DNA of 34,822 nt, taken from positions 1-34,822 of the forward strand of contig CAVVOP010000004.1 of the NCBI GenBank assembly GCA_963749915.1, read 5' to 3'. The position numbers and the translations under genes are program-made. Each line of letters opens with the position of its first letter. Position 1 is the first letter of the stretch. Source of the stretch: an uncultured cyanobacterium. GTDB taxonomy: Bacteria > Cyanobacteriota > Cyanobacteriia > Cyanobacteriales > Cyanobacteriaceae. Under the pieces are notes generated by a model that was not told where the DNA came from, searched no databases, and saw only the letters and a list, made by a program, of their open reading frames with translations. Shown piece by piece: positions 1,172 through 15,691 of this stretch.

Positions 1172-3422
1172 TTGAAACAAAATTGGGAAGTAGAAGAACT
1201 AATTGAATATTGGATTTTATTACCATCTGAAATGGCATTGTTAAGAAATAAAACAGGAGCAAAACGAATTGGTTTTGCAGTTTGTTTCAAGTATTTTCAG
1301 TTATTTAGTCAGTTTCCAGAAGCTCTTACCCAAATCCCTCTGGTAGTAATTAATTATATTGCTAGTCAAGTTAACGTATCATCTTCACTATATTTAGAAT
1401 ATGATTGGCAAGAAAGAAGTAGCAGATACCACAGAGAGCAAATTCGGGACTTTTTTGGTTTTAGATTAGTACAAGAACTAGATTTTCAAAAACTCAAAAA
1501 CTATTTATTATCAGATATATTACCCCAAGAACAAAAAGAAGAACATTTAATTATAGTAGTTGAGCAATATTTCCAAGAAAGCAAAATAGAACTGCCTAGT
1601 AAGAAAATATTACTACGTTTAATTCGTTCAGCGGTTCGTCAATTTGAAGAAGAGCGGCAACCGAACCACCTAGAGAATTACGCTCTCATTCCCCTATTAT
1701 TCGTTATACTTTAGTATCTGCTTTTTCCTGGTTAAGATTACTCCAAGTTACGGACAATTTGGTAGATTTACTGATTTCTATCATACATAGTATAAGTAGA
1801 AGAGCCGAAAGAAAAGTCGATACAGAATTAATCAAAGACTTTAAAAAAGTCACGGGTAAAAATCATCTTCTTTATCTTATGGCTAATGCTAGTTTAGAAA
1901 AACCTGATGGTGCTGTATCTGAAGTTATCTTTCCCGTAGTAGATGAAAACACACTATCAAATTTAGTCAAAGAGTTTAAATCTCAGGGTACTGCTTATCG
2001 TCAAAAAGTACATAATGTAATTCGTTCTTCTTATAGTCGTCATTACCGTCGCTTAGTACCGTCATTAAGGCAATGAACGGATTAATCGTATTAACTATGA
2101 AATAAGTGTTCTTCAAGCGTTGAGGGAAAGATTAAGATGTAAGGAAATTTGGGTAGTTGGTGCAAATCGTTATCGTAATCCCGATGAAGATTTACCCTCA
2201 GATTTTGAACAACATCGAGAAAATTATTATCAAGCATTGCAGTTACCAATGGATGTGGAAAGTTTTATCACTCCCTTGAAAATAGCATTATCATCTAATT
2301 TGATTACTTTAAATGAAGGAATACCCAAGAATAAGAAAGTCAAAATCTTGGACAAAAAAAATGGTTGGATTAGTGTCACACCTTTGGATAAACAAGCTGA
2401 ACCAGTTAATATTTTTCGATTAAAAAGTGAATTGGTGCAAAAATGGCCGATGACAAGTTTGTTAGATGTGTTAAAGGAGGCTGATTTAAGAATCGGTTTT
2501 ACAGATAGTTTCAAAAGCCTTGCCAGTAGGGAAGTTTTAGAAAAAGATGTATTACAAAAAAGGTTATTGCTTTGTCTGTATGGATTGGGTACGAATACAG
2601 GATTAAAACGAGTTAGTGATGGTACACCAAATATTGATTACCATGAACTTCGTTATATCAAACGCCGTTTTATTCATAAGGATTCACTTCGGGAAGCCAT
2701 CGCCTCTGTAGTTAATGCTATTTTTGAGATCAGAAATCCTGAGATTTGGGGAAATGGTACTACTACCTGTGCATCTGATTCTAAGAAGTTTGGTGCTTGG
2801 GATCAGAATTTAATGACGGAATGGCACCTGCGTTATGGTGGTAGGGGTGTGATGATTTATTGGCACGTTGAGAAGAAGTCAACTTGTATTTACTCTCAAT
2901 TAAAAACTTGTTCTTCTTCGGAAGTGGCGGCGATGATTGAAGGGGTATTGCGTCACGATACTCAAATGACCGTTAAACAGCAGTTTGTGGATACTCATGG
3001 GCAAAGTGAAGTCGCTTTTGCTTTTTGTCACTTGTTGGGTTTTGAGTTGATGCCTCGACTCAAAAATATTGGTAAACAAAAATTATATCGTCCAGAAGCA
3101 GGAGATAAAGAGAGTTATGAGAATTTACTCCCTGTTTTAACTCGCCCCATTAATTGGGATTTAATCCGTCAGCAATATGAGCAGATGGTGAAGTATGCTA
3201 CGGCTTTGAGATTAGGTATTGCTGAACCCGAAGCGATTTTACGTCGTTTTACTCGTGCTAATGTTAAACATCCTACCTATCAGGCTTTGGGGGAATTAGG
3301 AAAGGTAGTTAAAACTATGTGCTTTAACACCTTTAATTTATAGTCATATTAATCCTTACGGTACGTTTCATTTGGATATGAATGAGCGACTTGTGCTTAA
3401 GGTGGAGGTGGTGGTGGGGTGA
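1172..3422 (+). pseudogene. tnpA: Tn3-family transposase with three internal deletions/frame changes
   Basis: DUF4158-like N-terminus, then the motifs [34 protein letters not shown] and LMPRLKNI. The C-terminal [20 protein letters not shown] is in another frame (3321-3422). Frames change at ~1650, ~2067 and ~3318. Confidence 0.92.
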
Positions 3423-4126
3423 TCATGCAACGTACCAGTGCTAAAGTTAAGGCTAGAGCGATCGCTAAATTATTAAGGGATGAACATCCTGATTACAATT
3501 ATCTTAAAAGTGTTTTTCGGCATCTGCGTACTGAGCTAAATATTGAGGTAACTCATTCTGAAAAGAAATTACCAAAAGTTCCTACGGAAGAAGAGTTACA
3601 TAAATACTATCAAGCTGTTTGGAAAACTCGCAATGTGCAGGATATGGTGATTATTAAGACTTTTCTCTATACGGGTGTAAGAGTATCGGAGTTAGTTAAT
3701 ATTCGATTGGAAGATGTGGATTTTGATCGTTGTCAGATTCGGATTAATTCAGGGAAAGGGGGAAAGGATAGAATAGTTCCGTTTCCAATTTCTTTTAAGG
3801 AAGTTTTGGCTATGCACGTTGATAAGATGGAGGGTAAAAGCGCTAATTATTTATTTGAGTCTAATCGTCATCAAAAATATAGCGATCGTGGAATTAGAAA
3901 GATTTTGACAAAGTATGCAGACATGGCTGAATTAGATCATTCCATTTCACCCCATCAATTACGACATTTTCTGCTGACATGGCTGAAAAAACAAGGGATT
4001 GATGATGCTTTAATTCAACCCTATTCTGGTCATTCTTCTCGACAGTCATTAGAAGTTTATTCTCGCTTAAGTTTAAATGAAGCACAGTCTGCTTATGATA
4101 ACGTTATGTCCAAATTCCCTCTGTGA
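3419..4126 (+). CDS. Tyrosine recombinase (probable cointegrate resolvase of the Tn3 element)
   Basis: [23 protein letters not shown] and GHSS...LEVY catalytic motifs; start overlaps the tnpA stop; lies inside the IRs. Confidence 0.92.
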
Positions 4127-8334: not shown

Positions 8335-8967
8335 TTAAGCATCCCAAAGTCCTTGAAATCGTGCAGAGGCTAAATCTGTGTAACGCACCGTATGCTGGAT
8401 GTTACAATGACCGAGGTAGCTCTGAATTGTTCTCGTATCAATTCCTTTGTTAGCTAGATAGTAGCCTGTGCTATGGCGCAACATGTGAGTATGAATGGGG
8501 AAAGGAAGTTCCGCTAAATTTCCTGCTTGTTCAATGATTCCAGCAATTGTATCTTTCGCCAAAGGACTTCGCCGATTGGACTGAAAGACATAAGGACTAG
8601 CAGGATAATCTCGCTGTAGTTTTCGTAAAGCTCGAATCTCATTCCCATAAAGGGGTTGAATTGAAGGAGTACCATTTTTAACTCGCTTCACATAAATTGT
8701 TCCGCCGTTAAAATCTATCTGTTCCCATCTCAATGCCGCTGCCTCTGATAATCTTAATCCGTGACGATAAATCAGCAGAATTATGGTGTAATTTCGATGA
8801 GCATGGCGACTTCTTGATTTTTTGGTAGCAGAAAGCATCGCCTCAACTTCTTCTGGTAATAAATACTCTCTAGTTCTGACCTCTTCGTATTTATGACAAT
8901 TCGGAGATTGGGACTTTTGTTTTTCTATTTTGCCAACTTTCGGTAGTTGGATAGTTTTGGCTGTCAT
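8335..8967 (-). CDS. FimB/FimE-like tyrosine recombinase
   Basis: REYLLPEEV, YRHGLRLSE, HTHMLRHSTGYYLANKG and YLGHCNIQHTVRYT. Confidence 0.92.
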   Translation of the reverse strand: MTAKTIQLPKVGKIEKQKSQSPNCHKYEEVRTREYLLPEEVEAMLSATKKSRSRHAHRNYTIILLIYRHGLRLSEAAALRWEQIDFNGGTIYVKRVKNGTPSIQPLYGNEIRALRKLQRDYPASPYVFQSNRRSPLAKDTIAGIIEQAGNLAELPFPIHTHMLRHSTGYYLANKGIDTRTIQSYLGHCNIQHTVRYTDLASARFQGLWDA

Positions 8968-12630: not shown

Positions 12631-12659
12631 GTATCTGTTTTAGTTGTATAGGGTTTGAA

Positions 12660-14757
12660 CCCACATTCCGCACGTCAAACTGTATAAATTCAGATTACGA
12701 GGTTAGAGGTTGAACAGTGATTGACTACGACAAGAAATACTCGGTGATTAGTTCTCTAGCTTATCAAGAGAACTCAGATAAATTAGTAGAAAAATGAGCA
12801 ACGTTTAAGGGATAATTAAATTCAGTTTTTAATTTAATTTTGGAAATGATGTTTTCAGAAGATATACAAGTTCAAACCATTAATCATTTAGGATTAATTG
12901 CTGGAGTTATAGATGAAATTGGCATTGAAGAAATTATTAATGATGCCCTCGGTATTGACGAGAGGGAAATCGTGACAGCAGGTCAAATAGTCAAAGCAAT
13001 TATTCTGAACGGATTAGGATTTATTTCTCGACCTCTTTATCTATTTCCACAGTTTTTTAAAGACAAAGCCACAGAACATTTAATCGGAAAAGGAATACTA
13101 CCTGAGCATTTGAACGATGATAGAATTGGAAGAATAATGGATGAACTTTATGAAAAAAGATTATCTTCATTATTTTTAATTATTGCTTTAGCCACAGTAA
13201 AAAAATATAATATCAACATAGATTTTTCTCATTTAGATTCAACTTCTTTTGCGGTAGAGGGGAAATATAGTCAGGAAAAAATCACCAAAAATTTGGTGAA
13301 AGAAAATGCAGAATTAGAGTTAATTAATCAAATTCCAATTAAAATAATTAAAGGTTATTCCCGTGACCATCGACCAGATTTAAAACAATTTATTTTGGAT
13401 TTAATTGTGAGTGGTGATGGTGATATTCCACTATTCTTAAGAGTAGCAGATGGTAATGAAAATGATAGAGCAGTTTTCGGCAAAATAGCGAAAGAATACA
13501 AATCAATGATAGATTTCGAGACGATGATAGTAGGTGATAGTGCCTTATATACAGAAAATAACCTCAAATTGATGAGTGGAATAGAATGGTTATCGAGAGT
13601 TCCATTATCAATAAAAGATGCCCTCAATTTAGTTTCAGAACTGGGTGAATCTGATTTTACTCCCAGCAGTTTAGAAGGATATTCATGGTGCGAAGTGAAA
13701 AATAATTATGCAGAAATTGAGCAAAGATGGTTAGTAATAGAAAGTGAAAAAAGAAAGAAATCAGATCTCGAAAAGCTGAGAAAAAAAATAGAGAAAGAAA
13801 AAGAAAAAGCAGAAAAAACATTAACAAAGTTGATGAAAGAAGAATTTAGCTCATCAGAAGTAGCAGAGGAAATAGTTTTAAGACTGAATAAGACTTTAAA
13901 ATATCATGAAATAACCGAGATAAAAATTAGAGAAAATGAGTTAAAAAAGCAGCAAAAAAAATCTAAAAAGAAAGAAGAAAAATTAGGAAAAACTCATCAA
14001 GTTACGGCTGTTTTAAAATCAGATTTAACGAAAATAGCCGAATTAGAAAAAAGAGCGGGAAGATTTGTCTTAGCCACGAATAGATTAGATAAAAGTAAAT
14101 TTAGTTCCGATGAGATTCTAATTAAATATAAAGAACAACAAGCCGCAGAAAGAGGTTTTAGTTTTCTGAAAGATCCATTATTTTTTGCAGATAGTGTGTT
14201 TTTAAAAACCCCAAAAAGAATCGAAACAATGGCAATGTTGATGGGGTTATGCCTGTTGGTATATTCTTTGGGGCAAAGAGAAGTGCGTCGCTTATTAGAG
14301 GAGAGAAAAACGGGGATAAAAAATCAGCTAGGAAAACTAACGGAACGTCCAACGTTAAGATGGATATTTCAATGTTTTCAGGGGATTCATTTAGTAATAA
14401 ATCAAGGAATAAAACAGATAGTAAATCTAACAAATGAACGAAAACTGATTTTAAATTTTTTCCCGATTTCTTGTCATAATTATTATATTTTATCTGGATA
14501 ACTTATGGGATTTAAGAGTCTAAACATTCTCAATTATAATACCATAAATAAAGAAGAGAAAACTGATAGATTTGCTCTGTTTATTTATTCTCATTAAAGG
14601 TGAAGTTATTGACAATGAGATTTTAATTTGAGCAAAGTTCGCGAGTACAAAACGCGAACAAAGAAGATATTGAGTATTATTACTTATATTTTGTCCAAAA
14701 TAAGTTGCTTGGTTTTAATATTTTTATCATCTTACAAAGTGACGTGCGGAATGTGGG
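12660..14757 (+). mobile_element. IS1634-family insertion sequence
   Basis: IRs CCCACATTCCGCACGTCA (12660-12677) and TGACGTGCGGAATGTGGG (14740-14757); no exact direct TSD. Confidence 0.92.
12840..14501 (+). CDS. IS1634-family transposase
   Basis: HLGLIAG, HLNDDRIGR, HLDSTSF, GYSRDHRPDLKQ and YKEQQAAERGFSFLKDP; frame intact. Confidence 0.93.
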   Translation: MEMMFSEDIQVQTINHLGLIAGVIDEIGIEEIINDALGIDEREIVTAGQIVKAIILNGLGFISRPLYLFPQFFKDKATEHLIGKGILPEHLNDDRIGRIMDELYEKRLSSLFLIIALATVKKYNINIDFSHLDSTSFAVEGKYSQEKITKNLVKENAELELINQIPIKIIKGYSRDHRPDLKQFILDLIVSGDGDIPLFLRVADGNENDRAVFGKIAKEYKSMIDFETMIVGDSALYTENNLKLMSGIEWLSRVPLSIKDALNLVSELGESDFTPSSLEGYSWCEVKNNYAEIEQRWLVIESEKRKKSDLEKLRKKIEKEKEKAEKTLTKLMKEEFSSSEVAEEIVLRLNKTLKYHEITEIKIRENELKKQQKKSKKKEEKLGKTHQVTAVLKSDLTKIAELEKRAGRFVLATNRLDKSKFSSDEILIKYKEQQAAERGFSFLKDPLFFADSVFLKTPKRIETMAMLMGLCLLVYSLGQREVRRLLEERKTGIKNQLGKLTERPTLRWIFQCFQGIHLVINQGIKQIVNLTNERKLILNFFPISCHNYYILSG

Positions 14758-14759
14758 TT

Positions 14760-15009
14760 CAAAGCTAATCTGACAAAGAGCTCTGGATGCGGAAAAAGTA
14801 AAACGGTTAAAAATGACTATCAGATTGAGCGGCTAAGGACTTGAAGCATTTTCAGGAGGGAATAGGTACTTGCAAGTATTTTGGATAAAGGGTTTCAGGG
14901 GTTTGAACCAAATAAAGATTAAACTTTTAAGTAAATTTTTCAGTTAGCTAGAAAAGGTGCTGGTCAAATTATGTGTTAACTTAGATAGTACAGGCTTCTA
15001 GCTGATACT
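14760..15009 (+). promoter_or_regulatory. CRISPR leader-like region of the mini-array
   Basis: Non-coding; contains AAGGGTTTCAG and AAGGTGCTGGTCAAA...GGCTTCTAGC motifs like cyanobacterial leaders; abuts the first repeat. Confidence 0.55.
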
Positions 15010-15117
15010 CTGATTTATTGCTTGATGTCGTAAGGCGTTACTCACTGGCTATTTGATAATCATCCCGCTTTTACTGGTAAAGTGTTTTATTACTTGATGT
15101 CGTAAGGCGTTATTCAA
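15010..15117 (+). CRISPR. Mini CRISPR array: two 36-nt type I-B-like repeats and one 36-nt spacer
   Basis: CTGATTTATTGCTTGATGTCGTAAGGCGTTACTCAC (15010-15045), spacer TGGCTATTTGATAATCATCCCGCTTTTACTGGTAAA (15046-15081), GTGTTTTATTACTTGATGTCGTAAGGCGTTATTCAA (15082-15117). Resembles the cyanobacterial I-B repeat ...TTGATGCCGTAAGGCGTTGAGCAC. Confidence 0.82.
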
Positions 15118-15188
15118 AGGAAAATTTTAGTAGTGCTCTTTTACTAAGATTTTAGACTTGCCCTTTCCCCATGTTGAGTTTTTCTCCC

Positions 15189-15358
15189 AATTATACAACT
15201 TTATTGTTCGACATAATTTGACATAAGGAGGACTCTGAACTCATCTATCTATCTCACAGTCCAAATTATACAACTTTATTTTTTAAGATGCCAATTCAGG
15301 GAACGAGAAATTGAGAGATTCATAAAAGGAAATTATAAGACTTTATTCTGTCTCTACA
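15189..15358 (-). mobile_element. Tn7-like transposon end (left-end architecture)
   Basis: Minus strand from 15358 reads TGTAGAGACAGAATAAAGTCTTATAATT (compare Tn7 TGTGGGCGGACAATAAAGTCTTAAAC). Three same-orientation sites: AATTATACAACTTTATT at 15189-15205 and 15264-15280, and AATTATAAGACTTTATT at 15331-15347. Confidence 0.82.
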
Positions 15359-15388
15359 CATGGGATTGTCCAGAGTGTGGTACGAGTT

Positions 15389-15691
15389 ATGAATAAACTT
15401 TTACTCATCATTCTTTTATTGTTGATAAGTGGTTGCCAATTCACAAGCTCAGAACTACCTACTTGTACAACAACTGACTGTGATTGCTCTGATTTTACTA
15501 CTCAAGAAGAAGCTCAGGCGGTGTTAGAGGCTTTTCCAGACGATCGCTACAGACTTGATGGTGACGGTAATGGTATTGCTTGTGAGTCATTACCTAGAGG
15601 CAAGAAAACTACTAGGGGCAATCTAGCTCGAAACGATTGCTATATAAGAGATTTAAAACTAATATTTTGCGATCACCTTAGAGAAAACTAA
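15389..15691 (+). CDS. Lipoprotein with an Excalibur calcium-binding domain (C-terminus possibly truncated)
   Basis: Lipobox [22 protein letters not shown]...[15 protein letters not shown]. Confidence 0.8.

Follow-up and report, generated by a model that had tools for sequence, protein, structure and literature searches.

What is a CRISPR array with a single spacer doing next to three spaced direct repeats when neither cas nor tns genes accompany it? The question is raised by positions 14760-15358 of contig CAVVOP010000004.1 from an uncultured cyanobacterium (assembly GCA_963749915.1). The window analysed here is this entire contig with its 34,822 nt (contig C4 of an assembly of 34 contigs and 4.69 Mb). 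An original prediction, made from the letters alone, had described two 36-nt repeats around a 36-nt spacer, three direct sites, a terminus, and the pentamer CATGG, all of which lie where it had placed them. It had interpreted them as the left end of a type I-B CRISPR-associated transposon (CAST) extending leftwards, and this interpretation holds because the leader and the repeats have homologues in related elements such as that of genome G058, and the three-site end in those of G018, G002, and G294. It had missed the match between the spacer and a target gene, the tnsD stub between the array and the end, and the subtype, which is I-B1. It is close to certain that 14760-15358 is the left-end fragment of a type I-B1 CAST. 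The whole reading, according to which this fragment is the relic of a CAST that was directed to its site by its own guide and decayed later, has in our estimate a probability of about 0.8.

Relatives of the element were collected by a family-level DNA search, a Cas6 protein search, and a scan of genome_contigs for the 19-nt core of the repeat. The exact core is present at 11 loci, nine of them cyanobacterial, and Cas6 matched in 80 of 301 genomes of the order but not in the source genome itself. The arrays of the related CASTs have the repeat core TTGATGTCGTAAGGCGTTA. In G058, one strand reads glmS-tnsA-tnsB-tnsC-tniQ-cas6-cas8 (567 aa)-cas7-cas5-leader-array (11 repeats)-tnsD fragment, the last being a TniQ-domain fragment with the start of tnsD, followed by a type I restriction gene. 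NCBIfam assigns the G058 cas genes to type I-MYXAN/I-B above the curated cut-offs (cas6/cmx6, cas8a1/cmx1, cas7/DevR, cas5/cmx5), and cas genes adjoin the same repeat in G058 and at locus L070. In CASTs of this type, the Myxan-type set cas6-cas8-cas7-cas5 comes with no genes for adaptation or nuclease. AvCAST of Anabaena variabilis ATCC 29413, the prototype of type I-B1, was reportedly first described by Saito et al. in 2021; it was compared through its published descriptions. In the available text of two studies, type I-B1 CASTs are defined by separate tnsA and tnsB genes, a glmS-directed TnsD, and a second TniQ that is linked to the I-B Cascade (PMC11406308, PMC9881144). Both ends can be seen in G018: its element lies between a left end and a right end whose sites are closely packed, begins 25 bp past the glmS stop codon, and has CCTTT on both sides. 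In G294, the array is followed by 195 nt, three sites, and the terminus.

Downstream of glmS, G018 contains tandem decayed elements (G018:C1:3796700-3827400; L021, L016, L017). The first has only cas6, tnsD, and restriction-modification cargo between its CCTTT-flanked ends, and the second, which starts directly after the first, has a cas6 that is split and a tnsD that is truncated. In G294 (L058:15925-16090) and in L064, the last repeat is separated from the left end by about 195 nt of G+C-rich DNA, for which Rfam gave no match at E <=0.1 and the window has nothing equivalent.

The window contains the leader and the repeat family of a CAST-borne array with a terminal variant repeat. The leader alignment reaches a score of 130 with G058 (window 14782-15006) and starts from window 14760 with G294, and the leader is also present in L064, L067, and L063. 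Repeat 1 is identical to the repeat of L070 at 34 of 36 positions, to those of L063 and L067 at 33, and to those of G294 and G058 at 32. It can form a 7-bp hairpin on the plus strand only, and its plus-strand match to the Rfam family CRISPR-DR33 is weak (18.9 bits, below the gathering score of 39). Across the window, Rfam gave no match at the gathering score and at E <=1 only this match and a chance snoRNA match. Repeat 2 agrees at 33 of 36 positions with the variant last repeats of L063 and L067, in which the bases following it (AAAG.AAAAT) are conserved too. The two repeats of the window are identical to each other at 31 of 36 positions; the repeat search gave 84% identity over 43 nt at a spacing of 72. 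Elsewhere in the source genome, neither the repeat core (at <=3 mismatches of 21) nor the spacer (at <=8 mismatches of 36) was found.

Behind the second repeat, the window aligns to L070 through ATGTTGAGC.TTTTTCCCAA, the start of a 627-aa open reading frame (ORF) that follows the L070 array. This ORF encodes TnsD, being 58% identical to the TnsD of G018, which itself matches Pfam TnsD at 1e-110. The stub in the window runs directly into the innermost left-end site, and therefore tnsD and any cargo have been deleted. The three direct 17-mers (15189-15205, 15264-15280, and 15331-15347) are spaced 75 and 67 bp apart. Allowing up to two mismatches, the 17-mer is found three times in the window versus 0.07 expected, and none of 100 shuffles reached three. 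The terminus reads ...TACA at 15358, which is TGT on the minus strand, and the layout of site, 7 nt, and TACA is also present in G018, G002, and G294. Judged by this likeness, the window holds a left end with a TGT/ACA terminus and three widely spaced predicted TnsB sites. Only one copy of CATGG is visible since the other end is lost; intact homologues (G018, G011, which is of the same genus as the source genome, and C15a of the source genome) read ...CATGGGATTGTCC at this point.

The same family of ends also bounds a two-ended miniature of 335 bp on a conjugative plasmid of Gloeothece verrucosa PCC 7822 (L083:19827-20161, NC_014502.1), which is the only DNA match to the region in PLSDB. Its right end has three packed sites, its left end three spaced sites, and it is flanked by an AGAAA duplication. 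The plasmid record contains neither the repeat core nor a Mu-transposase C domain, and it was presumably a CAST in another part of that genome that moved the miniature in trans.

Table 1. Features of the CAST remnant and its borders in the window
Feature	Position	Strand	Basis or remark
Insertion sequence (IS) copy	12658-14759	+	right edge truncates the CAST remnant; edge uncertain by ~5 nt
Probable cas5 end, last two codons and stop (CAAAGCTAA)	14760-14768	+	aligned to the cas5 3' ends of G294 and G058
CRISPR leader, as in type I-B1 CAST arrays	14769-15009	+	local alignment to cas5-to-first-repeat intervals
CRISPR repeat 1, standard type, 3' end ...TTACTCAC	15010-15045	+	repeats of relatives
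Spacer, 36 nt, single	15046-15081	+	in frame reads WLFDNHPAFTGK
CRISPR repeat 2, terminal type (...ATTAC...GTTATTCAA)	15082-15117	+	last repeats of relatives
tnsD upstream region and first ~6 codons (ATG at 15171, MLSFSP)	15118-15190	+	aligned to L070
TnsB-type binding site (predicted), innermost	15188-15205	+	aligned to left ends of G018, G002, G294, and C20 of the source genome
TnsB-type binding site (predicted), middle	15263-15280	+	same left-end alignment
TnsB-type binding site (predicted), end-proximal (15330-15347), with 11-nt terminus	15330-15358	+	same left-end alignment
CATGG	15359-15363	+	would be one copy of the 5-bp target-site duplication
3' remnant of the target gene, last 12 codons and stop	15359-15396	+	tblastn with the G018 108-aa protein matches 15358-15393

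At the other border, the remnant is cut by an IS copy, whose transposase ORF (12840-14501, 553 aa) contains the Pfam domains DUF4277 and DDE_Tnp_1. In a blastn search against the source genome, dozens of full and partial copies with 81-100% identity end at window 14757-14769, and the inverted terminal sequence of the IS can be read at both edges. The DNA to the left of the IS has no likeness to CAST genes, and therefore the cut through the CAST remnant falls no more than about 9 nt from where cas5 ends. In G294 and G058, the 3' end of cas5 stands directly before the leader, and by its alignment to these ends the segment next to the IS is probably the last two codons and the stop of cas5, although the first 4 nt of 14760-14768 may instead belong to the IS terminal repeat. 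Thus, at most 9 nt of cas5 are left in the window. Concerning the fate of the Cascade genes, the original prediction had offered two possibilities, removal at the IS junction or action in trans for a non-autonomous element. The first is supported; the second is not, as the genome has neither the cognate genes nor a partner right end.

The IS is present on at least 20 contigs of the genome, and it probably accounts for much of the fragmentation of the assembly because several contigs end inside its copies. The Pfam search of the 35 window ORFs found ParA and ParB-HTH at 22.6-24.1 kb, by which the contig appears plasmid-like, together with fragments of Tn3-family and other transposases, integrases, and the IS transposase. 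One Tn3-family transposase is broken up into two or more ORFs (1172-3343, with the DUF4158 part at 1172-1714 and the DDE part at 2120-3343). Together with the integrase genes at 3419-4126 and 8335-8967, it shows that the contig is a mosaic of debris from mobile elements. An overlap of the contig ends of 20-127 nt, which would point to a circular molecule, was looked for and not found. In a search of sequencing runs, the best run shares 0.18 of the sampled words, probably from the IS part.

Could the remnant still be mobile? The Pfam search detected no tns or cas gene among the window ORFs, as the original prediction had noted. Searching beyond the window does not change this. The eight CAST proteins of G058, compared by tblastn with the source genome, revealed no TnsA, TnsC, TniQ, Cas6, Cas8, Cas7, or Cas5, and the TnsB query matched only an unrelated V-K-like gene on contig C22 with 28% identity. 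The Cas6 of G018 found nothing cognate there either. Of tnsD, the window has only the stub, and the one TnsD match in the genome is a truncated copy at glmS on contig C34. A genome-wide scan for clusters of end sites returned the left end of the window, a left end on C20, a right end at glmS on C34, and one loose, unrelated match on C22, so that there are only three type I-B1 end clusters in the genome. A right end with three contiguous TnsB sites is present neither in the window nor unpaired elsewhere in the genome. The search for a partner end and for cognate genes, which the original prediction had proposed, was thus negative on both counts.

The remaining two end clusters seem to have a history of their own. 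On C34 (G000:C34:3710-4711), the right end starts exactly 24 bp past the glmS stop codon and is followed by the truncated tnsD (90% identical to that of G018), a fragment of hsdM, an IS630-type gene, and the IS that also cuts the remnant in the window. On C20 (G000:C20:94190-94440), a two-site left end lies behind the same IS and a ygjP-like tail, as in G018. Probably, both are parts of one decayed glmS-resident element (flanks GGGAC and GGGGC). We considered whether the window end might pair with the C34 right end and rejected this because the latter pairs better with C20, given their flanks and the IS copies beside both, and because its flank differs from CATGG.

Two further sets of Tn7-type genes were noticed. 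At the end of contig C15, directly after a full-length Tn3-family transposase, there are a tnsA (212 aa) and a tnsB (713 aa) of another Tn7-like family (G000:C15:24229-27084, L006:17066-19921). They were dismissed as the cognate transposase since at E 1e-3 they are not similar to the G058 proteins and since C15, which also holds two copies of the target gene family described below, lacks such end sites. Contig C22 encodes a tnsB (584 aa), a TniB-type tnsC (286 aa), and a small tniQ (168 aa) next to a type I restriction-modification system (G000:C22:174790-177915, L005:8790-11915, minus strand); sizes and order of these genes, to which the comparison is restricted, are as in type V-K CASTs.

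These data bear on the possibility that the fragment is a guide-carrying non-autonomous element that is still mobilised, or whose CRISPR RNA (crRNA) is still used, by CAST proteins acting in trans. The Gloeothece miniature demonstrates that two-ended elements with only these ends exist, and the leader, both repeats, and the three left-end sites of the window are intact. However, the right end is missing, and according to the accessible part of the AvCAST study, all three right-end sites are required for activity (PMC13251919). There are also no cognate proteins to act in trans, the distant C15 pair and the V-K-like C22 genes being the only other Tn7-type genes in the genome, and the cas5 and tnsD stubs resemble the scars of deletions rather than the borders of a trimmed functional unit. 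We regard such an element as very unlikely. Because neither cognate tns and cas genes nor a partner right end are found, the remnant is best seen as a relic that would not be able to move, and its leader would at most drive a transcript that is not processed.

If the remnant is a relic, it is left to ask how the element had reached this place. The spacer matches the coding strand of a gene for a small DUF6464-like zinc-ribbon protein, for which the family-level search gave matches in G018 and G015. In G018, the target is an ORF of 108 aa with CxxC pairs; Pfam matches it to DUF6464 at E 0.0017, a weak match that does not reach the cut-off, and DUF6464 is the annotation in one plasmid record. 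Translated in frame, the spacer is the WL.DNHP.FTG motif of this family. Compared over the 36 nt, it has seven mismatches to G018 and to G015, eight to G011, and 9-11 to four paralogues in the source genome. The 3' end of this same gene family is found immediately outside the left end. In G018, the gene reads CATGGGATTGTCC... 40 nt past the spacer match, which is identical to the window from 15359. In five of the seven homologues (G018, G011, C13, C15a, and C10), exactly 40 nt separate the end of the best spacer match from the pentamer in front of GGGATTGTCC, and this pentamer is CATGG in G018, G011, and C15a. The C-terminal part has a different length in C15b and G015. The paralogue on contig C10 can stand for the empty site: window 15361-15614 and C10:52946-52693 share 97.6% identity, upstream of this stretch C10 continues into an intact gene, and its homology to the window is lost at the terminus. 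The original prediction had named unbroken homology across 15358 as evidence against a transposon end; instead, the homology of the paralogue begins only 3 nt after this position.

From these homologues the geometry of the insertion can be derived. The distance from the base before the protospacer to the joint with the right end would be 36 + 40 + 5 = 81 bp, or 45 bp from the end of the protospacer, and the left end is on the side distal from the protospacer. In the published text on AvCAST, RNA-guided insertions occur 78-81 bp downstream of the protospacer-adjacent motif (PAM; modelled at 79) with a protospacer of 36 bp, the right end with its three contiguous TnsB sites being proximal to the target and the left end having three more widely spaced sites (PMC13251919). 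A distance of 44-48 bp between insertion and target site is given for the same system in the part available of another study (PMC11300857). As far as the homologues tell, the geometry of an RNA-guided insertion, with 78-81 bp and a proximal right end, would therefore be the one realised here. Because the spacer match 40 bp before CATGG gives 81 bp and the left end is distal, as in AvCAST, the element very probably arrived by its own guide.

Several observations weigh against this reading. Even the best existing matches to the spacer differ at 7-11 of 36 positions. The PAM of type I-B CASTs is ATG in the available descriptions (PMC9881144, PMC13251919), but positions -3 to -1 of the homologues are TTA in four of seven (G018, G015, G011, and C15a), CTC in two (C13 and C10), and GTA in one (C15b). 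In the TTA homologues, an ATG overlaps -1 to +2, shifted by 2 nt into the spacer match, and would give 79 bp, but the boundary between repeat and spacer as set by the G294 and G058 arrays does not support moving it to this ATG. The half of the target with the true protospacer and the right end are not in the assembly, so that we infer the guide-directed insertion from paralogues and orthologues. A degenerate pattern for this repeat with the same spacer next to it had no match in either genome_contigs or metagenome_contigs, and none of 36 spacers from seven related arrays matches the zinc-ribbon family beyond chance words of 8-12 nt. The assembly consists of many contigs and is rich in IS copies, and missing pieces could simply be unassembled. 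Regarding the absence of the genes, the Pfam profiles for DevR, Cas6 (PF09559), and Cas5d had 0 matches in the source genome, but the Pfam searches for Cas6 and TniQ had controls without any match and weigh less than the protein searches. Finally, a simple scan found no promoter-like site on the plus strand of the leader; the three promoter-like sites in 14700-15400 are all on the minus strand (2.0 expected), which makes the promoter and terminator scan uninformative.

Other searches for the pair of guide and target were negative as well. The junction pattern of left end and target gene had 0 matches in metagenome_contigs, the pattern from protospacer to right end was present in 0 of 401 genomes of the order, and the spacer has only chance-level matches to PLSDB plasmids (E >=1), none of which is cyanobacterial. 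The zinc-ribbon family itself is found on 36 PLSDB plasmids, and 35 of the 36 cover at least 80% of the protein. These plasmids belong to Nostoc (17), Acaryochloris (6), Calothrix (3), and others including Microcystis and Synechocystis. In a plasmid of Cyanobacterium aponinum PCC 10605, the gene is interrupted inside the stretch that is equivalent to the protospacer (L071:20001-21400, NC_019777.1). A CAST insertion was considered for this early-ending copy and rejected because the interrupter is an IS630-like element.

The element might also have arrived by a different route, through a TnsD-like pathway, an untargeted insertion, or recombination, and the match of the spacer would then be secondary or coincidental. 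The missing protospacer, the non-ATG positions, and the minimum of seven mismatches all leave room for this. However, it is hard to imagine how coincidence would place the match on the right strand, on the right side, and at the spacing of AvCAST, as few spacers drawn at random from a replicon of about 35 kb would land at this point. A TnsD-dependent arrival is not suggested either, since the TnsD of the family targets glmS and the glmS copy of the same genome sits 24 bp past the stop codon, the distance of TnsD-guided insertions in the AvCAST text (PMC13251919). Such another route therefore has only a very slim chance of being correct.

Two explanations would remove the array from the transposon or the transposon from the locus altogether. 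Tn7-like elements that target CRISPR arrays occur in cyanobacteria, as the accessible part of PMC11837452 describes, and like the window they have a Tn7-like end within a few hundred bp of an array. In that case, a Tn7-like transposon would have inserted beside a resident orphan array. But those elements insert into a spacer and leave the array outside, whereas here the array is inside and a gene flanks the outside: from the TGT at 15358 inward, the sequence runs to the array, as at the ends beside glmS in G018, the zinc-ribbon gene and not a spacer forms the outer flank, and the leader, the repeats, and the tnsD stub are those of I-B1 CASTs. The probability of this explanation is next to nil. 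The same is true for plasmid iterons or regulator boxes beside an unrelated defence array, which the original prediction had named as a way in which it could be wrong and which the plasmid-like contig (ParA, ParB-HTH) and direct repeats of 17-18 nt about 70 bp apart could suggest, since the same sites, spacing, and TACA terminus bound transposons with 5-bp duplications in G018 at glmS (CCTTT) and in Gloeothece (AGAAA), are found in G002 and G294 too, and in the window coincide with the break in homology to the empty site.

Guide-directed arrival of an I-B1 CAST followed by decay would thus have proceeded as follows. The ancestral element would have had the order tnsA-tnsB-tnsC-tniQ-cas6-cas8-cas7-cas5-leader-array-tnsD-(cargo)-left end. 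A crRNA from its one-spacer array, bound in a Cascade-TniQ complex, would have recognised the protospacer in a zinc-ribbon gene on a plasmid-like replicon. TnsC and TnsA/B would then have inserted the element with the right end beside the protospacer and the left end distal, the joint being 81 bp from the PAM-side edge of the protospacer, and CATGG would have been duplicated. In the decay that followed, a deletion would have fused tnsD at about codon 7 to the innermost left-end site, and an IS copy would have come to lie within about 9 nt of the cas5 stop codon, everything left of it being lost, namely the right end, the half of the target that held the protospacer, and the cas and tns genes. 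The scars of both deletions can be read in the window; their order is presumed, as is the former presence of the right end and of the 5' half of the gene to the left.

In many respects the relic resembles known systems. With AvCAST it shares a TGT/ACA terminus and a left end in which three TnsB sites are spaced apart, and with AvCAST and type I-B1 CASTs in general the 36-nt repeats and 36-nt spacers downstream of cas6-cas8-cas7-cas5, with tnsD after the array in the relatives. The glmS copy on C34 and the insertion distance in the window agree with AvCAST too (24 bp past the stop codon, and 81 bp compared to the reported 78-81 bp). In contrast to AvCAST, only a left-end fragment is kept, there is a single spacer, and the PAM position in homologues is TTA, CTC, or GTA. 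As in Tn7, the ends of the family are asymmetric and contain several TnsB sites, 5 bp are duplicated, and TnsD directs one pathway to the region of the glmS terminator, but where Tn7 has TnsE, the second pathway relies on Cascade-TniQ and a crRNA. The closest parallel are the I-B1 CASTs with an att-spacer as final guide, whose targets are comM, comEC, and an unknown hydrolase, all with an ATG PAM, in the available text by Hsieh and Peters (PMC9881144). There too, the element is located at the site of its last guide (here the only one) inside a coding sequence. However, this subgroup is described in that text as being without TnsD (PMC9881144), whereas the window has kept a tnsD stub and the target is a zinc-ribbon gene of plasmids instead of a competence gene of the chromosome. 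Type I-B1 CASTs, their ends, and copies at the targets of final guides have already been published (PMC9881144). What seems new, no literature search having been aimed at this gene as a CAST target, is modest, namely the plasmid zinc-ribbon target, a tnsD-bearing element at the target of its guide, the non-ATG PAM position in every surviving homologue, and the mode of decay.

It is tempting to ask whether the single guide was more than an accident, namely a hard-wired plasmid-homing guide of an I-B1 CAST lineage that would have kept TnsD for glmS and fixed a single crRNA against the zinc-ribbon gene, which is conserved on cyanobacterial plasmids. If true, this would be an RNA-based counterpart of the TnsE pathway by which Tn7 reaches plasmids. 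The native leader, the one-spacer array, and the terminal-type repeat would fit, as would the conservation of the in-frame motif in the target (WL.DNHP.FTG) and the possibility that wobble mismatches are tolerated. However, the absence of the spacer from the seven related arrays and from both collection scans speaks against a widespread lineage of this kind, and we consider the idea unlikely.

CASTs have mostly been studied in Escherichia coli and in vitro, and natural copies at sites specified by their own arrays are known mainly for chromosomal att-spacers. Here, a tnsD-bearing I-B1 element seems to have left a readable footprint of the other leg of its two-pathway lifestyle, a guided hop into a plasmid gene. 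The natural pair of guide and target, with a PAM position that is not ATG in the homologues, could be tested in existing I-B1 assays. Decay in an IS-rich genome leaves orphan mini-arrays and single ends, which annotation pipelines miss. Thus, an isolated repeat-spacer-repeat unit next to three spaced AT-rich sites can be the dead end of a CAST and not a defence array or a set of iterons.

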